DNA from: a virus
Direction: 5' to 3' (one strand)
DNA length: 64,000 bases
IMG/VR virus record: IMGVR_UViG_3300020000_000010
Location: 33,601-97,600 of that record
Below the pieces are notes generated by a model. That model was not told where the DNA came from. It saw only the letters and a list, made by a program, of their open reading frames with translations, and searched no databases. Position 1 is the stretch's first letter. The number at the start of each line of letters is the position of its first letter. Positions 42,218-45,267 of this stretch are shown here, piece after piece. Both the position numbers and the translations under genes were made by a program.

Positions 42218-42370
42218 TAGTTCTAATGAGACTCAAACTCATGCCCTCCTATTTTCTTCAAGTTTTCACAATAGGTTCTTGACTAATCAATCTACTATTG
42301 TAGTTAACGTCTTTTTGTATACTATTTAATGAAGTAGGTGCTCTACCAACAAAAACTGAGCTATAGAACT
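42218..42370 (-). tRNA. tRNA(CAT)-like gene with a ~74-nt insertion in the anticodon loop
   Basis: Acceptor AGTTCTA/TAGAACT, D GCTC/GAGC, CCTAC-TT-CAT, insert, AA-ATAGG, variable AGGGC, T-arm ATGAG-TTTGAGT-CTCAT. Confidence 0.7.
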
Positions 42371-42689: not shown

Positions 42690-42765
42690 TACCCCAGGTA
42701 GGATTCAAACCTACATATGTTCAGTTATGCACCTTCTGTTTAGAAAACAGGGCCAATACAAGGGC
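42690..42765 (-). tRNA. Non-canonical tRNA-Arg(TCT) lacking a D-arm
   Basis: Acceptor GCCCTTG/CTGGGGT, anticodon arm CTGT-TTTCTAA-ACAG, ~20-nt variable region, T-arm GTAGG-TTTGAAT-CCTAC. Confidence 0.65.
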
Positions 42766-44663
42766 ATATAGATTTAAAAACCCCTATCTTACTATTAATT
42801 CAAATAGAGGTTTAATATAAAAAATGTATTATTGGGTATTATCACCTAATGTCTTCTTTCATAGAAAGATATTTTTTTTGCTTCCGCTTCTAAACTAAAT
42901 ACATTTTTATTGTAAGCCTTTTACGTTATTTCTTACAGGAAGGTTATTTACTATTACCTACAAAAGTTTCTCTTAAGAACTAAAAGAATATTTCAACTGA
43001 CGATAGACTTTTCTACCTTTAGTTGAAGTTCTATTATTTCTCCTATATTCTATTTCAATCTCTCCTTTTATATTAATAAAAGTATTTTCATTTCTTAACC
43101 TTCTATTAAAGAAAGTATTATTATGAAAAGGGTTTTCTTTGGTTATAGGATTTAATAGAATAGGTTTACCATAATTAGGATTAGACATATCTAAATCCAT
43201 ATCAAATTGTTTTACATAGGGCTGGTTTTTCATAGTTTTAAGTTATTATTTGGTTAGTAATATCTATTTGTTCTAAAATATCTGATTTCTTATAACAAAT
43301 TTGAGATTTTCCAGATTTTCCAAAATATGTTCTTATTTTGTAAATTCTAAATCCTTCTTTAATTAGTTTTAATAGTTCTGAATATTCTATGTGTCTATAG
43401 ATTTGGGTTACTCTTTTAAAAGCACAGAAATCATCTAAATTATGTATATAATCTGGTATATCATAATGAGGAGTTTCTAATTTATTACAACATTTTGTAG
43501 TATTTGTTATTCTTTTGTGTTTCTCTGAATAGAAAATCCCCAATCCATCTGAATCTTCTATTCTATATATCCACATACTGTTTAAGTTTTAAGTTTAAAT
43601 ACAACTATTAAGACTAATATCAAAGATATAAATATAGTTACACAATTAAGAATTATTAATACCAAAGATAAATCTTTTGAAGAATTATCCATATTATTAA
43701 CAACTGTTTCTTTAGTATCTATATAATATATGTTGTTTTTATCATTCTCTTTAGCTTGATTTAAGGTACATTGATTAGAAGTATCTCTTTGGTGTAAAGT
43801 ATCTTGATAAGTGATATTTGGAGGTTTTTCTTGGTATTTCTGACAACTAGTTAATCCTGATAATATAGACAATATTAACATAATTAAAAAGAAGAATTTT
43901 ATAGGGTTTTTCATGGTTAATTAAGTTAATTTGGTTTTATATTTTGTTATTATATAATCTCTAATTCCAAATAGAATTAATAATAGTAAAATATATTCTG
44001 GTTCTATTTGGATTATCATGGTTATTATGGTTTTAACTATTTCTTATTAGTGATTTTTGATATTCGTTTTCAAGGTTATCAATATACCCTACATATTCTT
44101 CAACAAGAGACATATCCCATCTATACCATTTAAAAGAAAGATCATTAAATTCCTCTCTATTATAATAACAATTCTCATTTATCAATAAAACAGTTTCTAG
44201 TTTTGTTCTTATTTTCATGGTTATTGTTTTTTAAAGGTTATTATATCTCCTATATTATATTTACCACAAGTATCTATAATATGTGACTTCATTGGTAGTA
44301 ATACATCATTAAAATTTGTATATTTACAATATCCTTTTCCAAGATCTTCAATATCTGTTATTTTTAAACTAATTGAAGGTATTCTAGTACAGCTATTTAA
44401 TCCAATTAGGATAGATAGTATTAAAATTAGTTTTTTCATGGTTTTATAGATTTTGTATATTTTAAAGATTAAAAAGTTCCAATAGCCATATATGTTAAAA
44501 TAAACATTTGGGAAATATCCATTAATAAATGGTTTTTTCATAGTTTTAAATTGATTTCTTAATAAGTATTAGAGGCTTCTATATATTCCAATAGATATTT
44601 TATTACCTCTAATACTAGTACAACAAACGGCTATTTGTGTATTATTACCTAATACTAGGCTAA

Positions 44664-45056
44664 TGGTGGAGGTGGTGGCATATGCTAGCCACGTTATTCC
44701 ATAATAAGTAATAGTGTTCTACAAGTTTAGTATTTAGATTTCTCCTAATACAGGATAATTACTATTAGTAGTAATCACTCTATCTGCTATAATTTTAATT
44801 CTTCCCAGATAACTAGAATTTTCCTAAATTTAGTTAAGCTAATACTAAATCTGCTTTAGGAGCAGTTACTGATTTAACAGTTTTAACAGAGCTTGATGGT
44901 TTTACAACCCAATTAGAACAGTCTGCTACTGTACCTACTTCGTTGGTTATTACACATTTGTCATTTATGACTTTGAATACATAGATTAATGAGATAGTAT
45001 ACATCTCTCAACTTGCTTGTTATTAATTATATATAGAATGCTTACTGTTCACCCCC
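44664..45056 (-). ncRNA. ssrA: tmRNA (393 nt)
   Basis: 5' GGGGGTG pairs with CACCTCC-A-CCA and gives G3-U. GCAAG/CTTGT helix within TAAACTTGTAGAA, ATAAAT-GAC resume context, and an open tag frame 44962-44834 ending LVLA-stop. Confidence 0.9.
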
Positions 45057-45267
45057 ATATATTATTGTAACCAATATTTAAATAGTAGTTTTCCTTCTAA
45101 ATATATTGATTGTGTATTGTTTAATTGGTTGTAAACTATTAGTTTCATAGTATTTTAAGTTTGGGTTTAAACAAGTATTGATAGATAGATAGTAACTCTA
45201 CTTTTTACGCCTCTAAACTTAGGATACAATCTAAGATTTATTTCAAGGATCTATCAATACTATATTA

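Follow-up and report, generated by a model that had tools for sequence, protein, structure and literature searches.

A tmRNA gene in a crAss-like phage with a predicted 42-codon tag and an altered, possibly remodelled elbow

Can an RNA that lacks the usual T-loop, and that contains a tag frame about four times longer than usual, still be a working tmRNA? The question is raised by a locus within a 64-kb stretch of viral DNA (called here the window: 64,000 nucleotides, the right-hand part of an IMG/VR virus record that is 97.6 kb long and is rated complete). An initial annotation, made from the letters alone, read the locus as a phage tmRNA, and the reading is taken up here with homologues, RNA models and a comparison of phage tmRNAs.

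The window has a G+C content of about 26%, and its phage possesses crAss-like genes for the terminase, portal, major capsid and DNA polymerase. The best matches of the terminase are to Cellulophaga phage phi14:2 (36%), IAS virus and crAss-like phages of the gut, and soil metagenomes contain DNA nearly identical to that of the window. The annotation had found no smpB in the window. The absence extends to the whole 97.6-kb phage genome, nor were genes for ClpP or SspB found in the phage.

The gene, its homologues and its detection

Judged by its structure, its alignment to the Rfam tmRNA model RF00023 and the covariation of its homologues, the locus holds a real one-piece tmRNA gene, which belongs to a crAss-like phage and runs from 45056 to 44664 on the minus strand (Table 1), and the identity, coordinates and strand first given to it are exact. 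RNA positions 1-7 pair with 383-389 to form a 7-bp acceptor stem with G3:U, so the alanine-type end (G3:U, A, CCA) noticed initially is plain in the sequence. All 5 bp of the T-stem (GUGGC/GCCAC) are matched, and the loop that they close has 8 nt, as opposed to the usual 7-nt UUCRANY. The minimum-free-energy fold recovers the acceptor stem, the long helix 2, the hairpin of the first pseudoknot and the T-arm, with a z-score of -3.3 relative to shuffled sequences. The hairpins 3' of the tag are variable, and no conserved pseudoknot of the 2-4 region could be aligned there.

Table 1. Parts of the tmRNA gene, with positions in the window
Feature	Position	Strand	Basis
Whole one-piece tmRNA gene, 393 nt including encoded CCA	44664..45056	-	RF00023 alignment over 1-374 at those ends; homologue covariation; MFE fold
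Acceptor stem, 5' strand (G1-G7), with G3 of G3:U	45050..45056	-	7/7 pairs with 44668-44674; homologues covary
Shortened D-loop, 10 nt, AG where tmRNAs have GG	45040..45049	-	Same AG in L133, L196, L182, L238
Helix 2, 5' strand	45011..45039	-	Pairs with 44696-44726
Pseudoknot 1, two stems	44974..45010	-	Stems P3 and P4 paired across homologues
In-frame ATG, not conserved, inside pseudoknot 1	45002-45004	-	In relatives a stop comes after it or it is out of frame
Single-stranded spacer, 11 nt, U at -5, A at -4	44963..44973	-	Equal spacing and position in all homologues
Tag reading frame (predicted), 42 codons from GAC, end LVLA	44837..44962	-	Open frame in homologues; motif selection
UAA stop in loop of helix-5-like hairpin (about 44828-44850)	44834..44836	-	Sequence and fold
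3' domain reduced to some 105 nt, hairpins apparently taking the place of pseudoknots 2-4	44727..44833	-	Hypervariable among homologues
Helix 2, 3' strand, including a family-conserved segment	44696..44726	-	Pairing with 45011-45039; homologue alignment
T-arm: 5-bp stem and 8-nt non-canonical loop (44680-44687), core AGCAU	44675..44692	-	T-stem covariation; identical in independent sample
Acceptor stem, 3' strand, discriminator A, encoded CCA	44664..44674	-	Sequence and 7/7 pairing

Homologues were sought with the 56-aa protein that can be translated from the tag region, which led to three proteins and then to DNA loci: six in IMG/VR and four metagenome contigs, one of which repeats an IMG/VR locus (one of the four contigs is cut at its 3' end). 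Every complete homologue found in this way, through the tag alone, turns out to have a full tmRNA gene. There are six different acceptor stems amongst them, all fully complementary, and G3:U is present in all but L128. In an alignment of nine sequences, 81% of the cells are paired and 26 of 40 pairs exhibit double changes; none of 500 shuffles did as well, and slid registers likewise came nowhere near. The inner 6 bp of helix 2 are 100% paired, with one compensatory swap of A:U to U:A. In pseudoknot 1, stem P3 is 100% paired with double changes in all five pairs, and stem P4 is 81% paired. Four of the five pairs of the T-stem have double changes across homologues. The exceptional L128 (5945-6346, the same as L185) has G3:U in neither register of its acceptor and C as its discriminator, and its tag of 43 codons is intact.

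It might be thought that the locus is nothing but an ordinary small protein gene of 56 aa, read from the ATG at 45004. The open reading frame does exist: public protein collections hold 44834-45004 on the minus strand as a predicted 56-aa protein, together with three homologues predicted to be 55-56 aa. However, the ATG is followed by a stop codon in L127 and L129, out of frame in L130-L132 and absent from L128, while the frame from the GAC codon discussed below is kept in all, and the flanks fold into a covarying tRNA-like domain. With the ATG inside pseudoknot 1 and its role as a start not conserved, an ordinary reading frame is highly improbable. The 55-56-aa proteins are gene-caller artefacts of tmRNA genes.

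A second alternative considers how phages commonly come to carry parts of ssrA. Many temperate phages integrate into that gene and bear its 3' end, and the locus could be a fragment of a host's tmRNA carried as attP. But the gene is complete, with both halves, and resides in a crAss-like genome of the lytic type. The tag motif was not found in a tmRNA context by two pattern scans over bacterial and archaeal genomes, one for each of 185,579 species (the 63 matches of the second bacterial scan are unrelated and without helix-2 motifs), and the tags of chromosomal Bacteroidota tmRNAs have 8-10 residues. The chance that the gene is an attP fragment is negligible. The terminases of the phages carrying homologues are only 27-33% identical to that of the window phage, and with carriers so distant, the tmRNA gene must be old or mobile among these phages.

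How could such a gene be overlooked? RF00023 aligns end to end at 45056-44664, but with a score of 29.7 bits (E = 6e-10 in a search of 1.1 kb) as against a gathering score of 47, the match being strong at the ends and weak in the middle. There is no match when the model is run over the whole phage with strict filters. Neither ARAGORN nor Rfam at its gathering threshold reports a tmRNA at the locus; one and the same tRNA is the only call of either in the window. The initial annotation had proposed these tools as a check; at their thresholds the window copy does not pass, and several homologues do: ARAGORN calls a tmRNA in five of them, and Rfam gives 59.8-81.2 bits to L129, L130 and L131, and 43 to L133. 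ARAGORN is used by common phage annotation pipelines. Because it called none of the nine genes with variant T-loops given to it, and because the tag region is taken for a 56-aa protein, tmRNAs of this kind are systematically missed or mis-annotated, and standard pipelines will under-count them.

Other searches concern the surroundings and occurrence of the gene. The adjoining 213-aa protein has no useful relatives, the small flanking open reading frames have no match in Pfam, and a scan for sigma-70 promoters did no better than on shuffled sequences, leaving no promoter to assign. The only blastn match among 50,697 phage records is one of 41 nt, at chance level. No tmRNA was found in the flanks of TerL relatives (41-44% identity), and viral contigs scanned with the 16-mer of the tmRNA's 3' end gave unspecific matches. 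The one contig from a metatranscriptome library (X14, 314 nt, less than 90% identical to window 44730-44989) is the tmRNA of a relative and lies wholly inside the gene, a weak hint of the expression or abundance of such RNAs; runs X4 and X5 cover parts of the tmRNA gene only. In the homologous locus L132 (1675-2258), the tmRNA sits inside a cluster of tRNA genes, a tRNA-Arg ending 4 nt before it and another tRNA starting about 35 nt after it.

Tag length and the resume codon

The initial annotation described a 42-residue tag containing two cysteines and a tryptophan. The frame from GAC (44962) to the codon preceding UAA (44836-44834) does have 42 codons and encodes the peptide as then written. 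None of the ten DNA homologues has a stop codon in this frame, against 1-8 stops in the other two, and it is also open in three further database proteins. Differences in length amongst the homologues leave it open. GAC, which starts this internal frame without SD or AUG, is 11 nt after pseudoknot 1, and the corresponding codon lies at nt 94-98 in the homologues, compared to nt 90-103 for the resume codon in 31 chromosomal Bacteroidota tmRNAs.

A wider family was collected by means of a helix-2 pattern. Its tags have about 38-44 codons, an ITNEVG-type motif soon after their first codon and an ending of the ELELAA type. For the family, the proposed resume codons are GAC, GGN and GCA, kinds that are common at this place in tmRNAs (PMC1168896); nearly all have U at -5 and A at -4. 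ITNEVG, at codons 5-10, is kept in 17 distinct tags of the family while its synonymous codons vary, giving a pN/pS of 0.083, as compared with 0.44 for the last 11 residues and 0.72 for the middle of the tag, whose weak constraint counts against the long tag. In its extended form the conserved N-terminal motif is ITNEVG..AD. The C-terminus is LVLA in the window and mostly LAA in other members, a hydrophobic-alanine end with the look of a protease degron.

There is another way to read the frame. ARAGORN gives relatives a tag of 11-12 residues in the same frame but starting 31 codons downstream, with tags of the type APKAVELELAA in five of them. By this account, translation in the window RNA resumes about 31 codons downstream at GCU and adds 11 residues, and the frame upstream of that point is structural RNA. 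The APK segment does lie in a conserved small hairpin, and the tag would be as long as ordinary ones. But ARAGORN's choice is a heuristic one, it is GAC and not GCU that has U and A at -5 and -4 and stands 11 nt after pseudoknot 1, and chromosomal tmRNAs resume at the nucleotide position of GAC. The frame is also open in all homologues, where the others are closed by stops. ITNEVG lies upstream of ARAGORN's start, and a motif under such strong selection at the level of the peptide, with variation amongst synonymous codons, must be translated. I consider the short tag quite unlikely. The long tag, with its 42 codons, is very probably the one translated. Of the possible resume points, the one near GAC has the best support; a much later start, such as ARAGORN prefers, is what the initial annotation had named as evidence against its reading.

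It had also been supposed that the phage appends something more than a plain degron. Strong purifying selection on the N-terminal motif, together with the degron-like C-terminal end, supports this and suggests a role for the tag beyond marking proteins for degradation. An analogy is the tag of E. coli, which has a separate part that binds an adaptor.

Coupled changes in the T-loop and D-loop

The T-loop of the window gene, 8 nt with the core AGCAU, is without U54, U55 and A58, and its D-loop has AG, not GG. The initial annotation was right to call the T-loop non-canonical: a contig from a different soil sample and a different study is identical over 44600-45096, and an assembly error is thereby ruled out as the source of the odd sequence. 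In all close homologues except L133, the T-loop is canonical and the D-loop has GG, from which it follows that the window's T-loop is derived. Canonical loops are customary in tmRNAs but do not define them, and with the closest homologues canonical, membership in the tmRNAs by descent stands despite the non-canonical loops.

The tertiary pairs of the tRNA elbow are G18-Psi55 and G19-C56. Loop classes were defined from 66 distinct phage tmRNAs, all with the helix-2 motif in common and all retained by a filter on the acceptor and T-stem. The T-loop is canonical UUCRA in 51 of these, and the D-loop has GG in 51 of the 51. Five (the window gene, L133, L196, L182 and L238) have a T-loop with the core RGCRK, and in all five the D-loop has AG. 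Three (L190, L217 and L247) have UUURA, and in all three the D-loop has GA. Six with other T-loop variants keep GG, and the remaining one, L231, has a D-arm-like hairpin of its own.

These combinations fit the prediction from the two textbook contacts. In the UUURA group, G19:C56 would be replaced by A:U. In the RGCRK group, I infer that G18-U55 is replaced by A18-G55, with C56 and its G partner kept. For the window gene itself, the register of the 8-nt T-loop relative to the 7-nt RGCRK loops is ambiguous, and an alternative register keeps U54-A58 and loses C56.

A tree was made from the molecule without its D-loop, T-arm and 3' strand of the acceptor. On well-supported branches of this tree the RGCRK type must have arisen three times or more, and its placement in one clade is rejected with a p-AU of 2e-37 (the group having been named after the data were seen). 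The D-loop and T-loop change together in seven of seven phylogenetically independent contrasts (sign test, p = 0.016). The altered T-loop is no lone oddity but half of a coupled exchange that recurs in several lineages of phage tmRNAs. The window copy is in the minority of the long-tag family with both loops exchanged. L182, which combines RGCRK with AG, is the short-tag tmRNA of a 152-kb phage, recognized with confidence at 86.9 bits, and L238 also has a short tag, so the exchange at the elbow is independent of the long tag.

A changed elbow could impair the RNA, and it may be asked whether the window copy is decaying or inactive, a relic or a decoy whose damaged T-loop and D-loop block SmpB binding or entry into the ribosome. 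A non-canonical T-loop, the loss of GG from the D-loop and the low Rfam score are what one would look for in such a case, and the interaction between the loops is needed for SmpB function (PMC3968760). On the other hand, the window copy shows no damage in its acceptor stem, G3:U, T-stem, pseudoknot 1 or 42-codon frame. L133 and L196, with the same type of loop, keep an open tag frame, and the compensatory changes by which acceptor stems and T-stems differ within the RGCRK class, theirs included, argue for maintained function and against decay. That the same combination of loops occurs in so confident a tmRNA as L182, and that the two loops change together in every independent contrast, is the pattern of a maintained contact. 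Decay is on balance unlikely. The recurrence of the coupled exchange, with a contact of the G19:C56 type kept, points to an elbow that is remodelled and still folded, not destroyed. By reading of the sequences, the G that follows the D-loop dinucleotide is apparently kept in the variant class. The G at this place in E. coli tmRNA (G19, E. coli numbering) packs against SmpB (PMC8363625).

Other departures were seen along the way. In L231 (a contig of the IMGVR_UViG_3300031772 type), the D region can form a small hairpin and the T-loop is UUGGAAU, a third departure from the canonical elbow. L168, L187 and L210 are long-tag tmRNAs that have in common the T-loop AUCGUAC, in which U54 and A58 have been exchanged for A54 and U58, and keep GG in the D-loop; all three were missed by ARAGORN, and Rfam gives L168 28.7 bits. 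Two tRNA-like sequences lie on the minus strand of the window itself. That at 42690-42765 scores 26.1 bits against Rfam's 29, with 4 nt for a D-arm, a long extra region, the T-loop UUUGAAU (U for C56) and the anticodon UCU by the Rfam alignment. That at 42218-42370, called by neither ARAGORN nor Rfam, has the anticodon CAT, an interruption of about 70 nt after the anticodon and the T-loop UUUGAGU. In the phage of L182, 17 tRNA genes occupy the 9 kb upstream, and a partial match to GOLLD RNA (L182:10411-10837; 73 bits, threshold 150) is found about 630 nt downstream of the tmRNA. The long-tag RGCRK tmRNA of L196 has, at a distance of a few kb (L196:4032-5063), two matches to the group I intron model, of 77.9 and 48.7 bits.

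A proposed mechanism and its relation to known systems

I propose that the gene produces a functional one-piece tmRNA, encoded by the phage, with a 42-codon tag and a remodelled elbow, that works through host factors, and I regard this as likely. By analogy with known systems, the RNA would be transcribed from the minus strand along with the block of early or middle genes and be trimmed as tRNAs are, host AlaRS would charge it with alanine by virtue of G3:U and A73, and it would enter stalled ribosomes with host SmpB and EF-Tu. Translation would resume at GAC, a step strongly supported by the homologues, adding 42 encoded residues to the nascent protein. The tag would have ITNEVG..AD as its N-terminal motif and, at the C-terminus, a hydrophobic-alanine sequence such as host proteases recognize as a degron. 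Having no SmpB, ClpP or SspB of its own, the phage must depend on the host's AlaRS, SmpB, EF-Tu and proteases, according to the known mechanism (PMC3968760, PMC8363625).

At the elbow, covariation suggests that A18-G55 stands for G18-U55 and a purine for U54, with the G19:C56-type contact kept. The exchange would remove the two uridines modified by host TrmA and TruB, enzymes that act on uridines in tmRNA (PMC3968760), and this loss may be the purpose of the exchange or a mere consequence. A bolder idea is that the alternative elbow has evolved repeatedly because it escapes host readers of U54 and U55 (TrmA, TruB or a defence nuclease that recognizes the T-loop) while still passing RNase P, EF-Tu, SmpB and the ribosome, and that the tag motif sends the proteins of rescued ribosomes, by way of an adaptor or partner, to a fate of the phage's choosing and not to plain degradation. 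This is speculative, and as a whole rather improbable. The suggestions in the initial annotation that the RNA answers defence RNases and that its T-loop evades host nucleases are likewise unsupported.

tmRNA is usually taken to be a nearly invariant machine, and this family of phages would supply two natural departures from it, of interest to the study of both trans-translation and tRNA architecture. A tag of at least 42 residues whose peptide motif is under selection implies that phages change what becomes of the proteins that stalled ribosomes release. A coupled exchange at the elbow with several origins amounts to a mutational experiment made by nature, on the features of the tRNA-like domain that are needed by SmpB, RNase P, EF-Tu and the ribosome. 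Reviews describe the T-loop of tmRNA as universally tRNA-like, with m5U and pseudouridine, and its contact with the D-loop as needed for SmpB. A search of the accessible literature found no tmRNA described in crAss-like phages (the two occur together only in methods sections that name ARAGORN), no tag of this length, no non-canonical T-loop in a phage tmRNA and no A18/G55 elbow. The present analysis adds the coupled exchange of T-loop and D-loop and its recurrence in phage tmRNAs.

The published tmRNAs of phages, those of the mycobacteriophages Bxz1, Cali, Catera and others and of Bacillus phage G (PMC4131195), resemble the present gene in being complete ssrA genes on lytic phages without smpB of their own. 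They differ in host phylum and in the order of the phage, here crAss-like.

The tmRNAs on the chromosomes of Bacteroidota (RF00023) are alike in G3:U, A73, CCA, helix 2 and pseudoknot 1, in the 11-nt spacer (U at -5, A at -4), in resumption near nt 95, and in a hydrophobic-alanine end of the tag with the stop codon in a hairpin loop. They are unlike in that tags in the 31 genomes sampled have only 8-10 residues as opposed to 42 codons, in that all 31 have canonical T-loops and D-loops, and in that the 3' domain of the window gene is reduced to about 105 nt. The tag also exceeds the range of 8-35 residues given by a review of 2014 (PMC3968760).

Finally, the variant RNAs resemble the textbook tRNA elbow in that their D-loops and T-loops covary as predicted: GG with UUC, GA with UUU and AG with RGC. 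The class to which the window gene belongs departs from it in the putative pairing of A18 with G55 and a purine at 54, a combination of which I know of no description.
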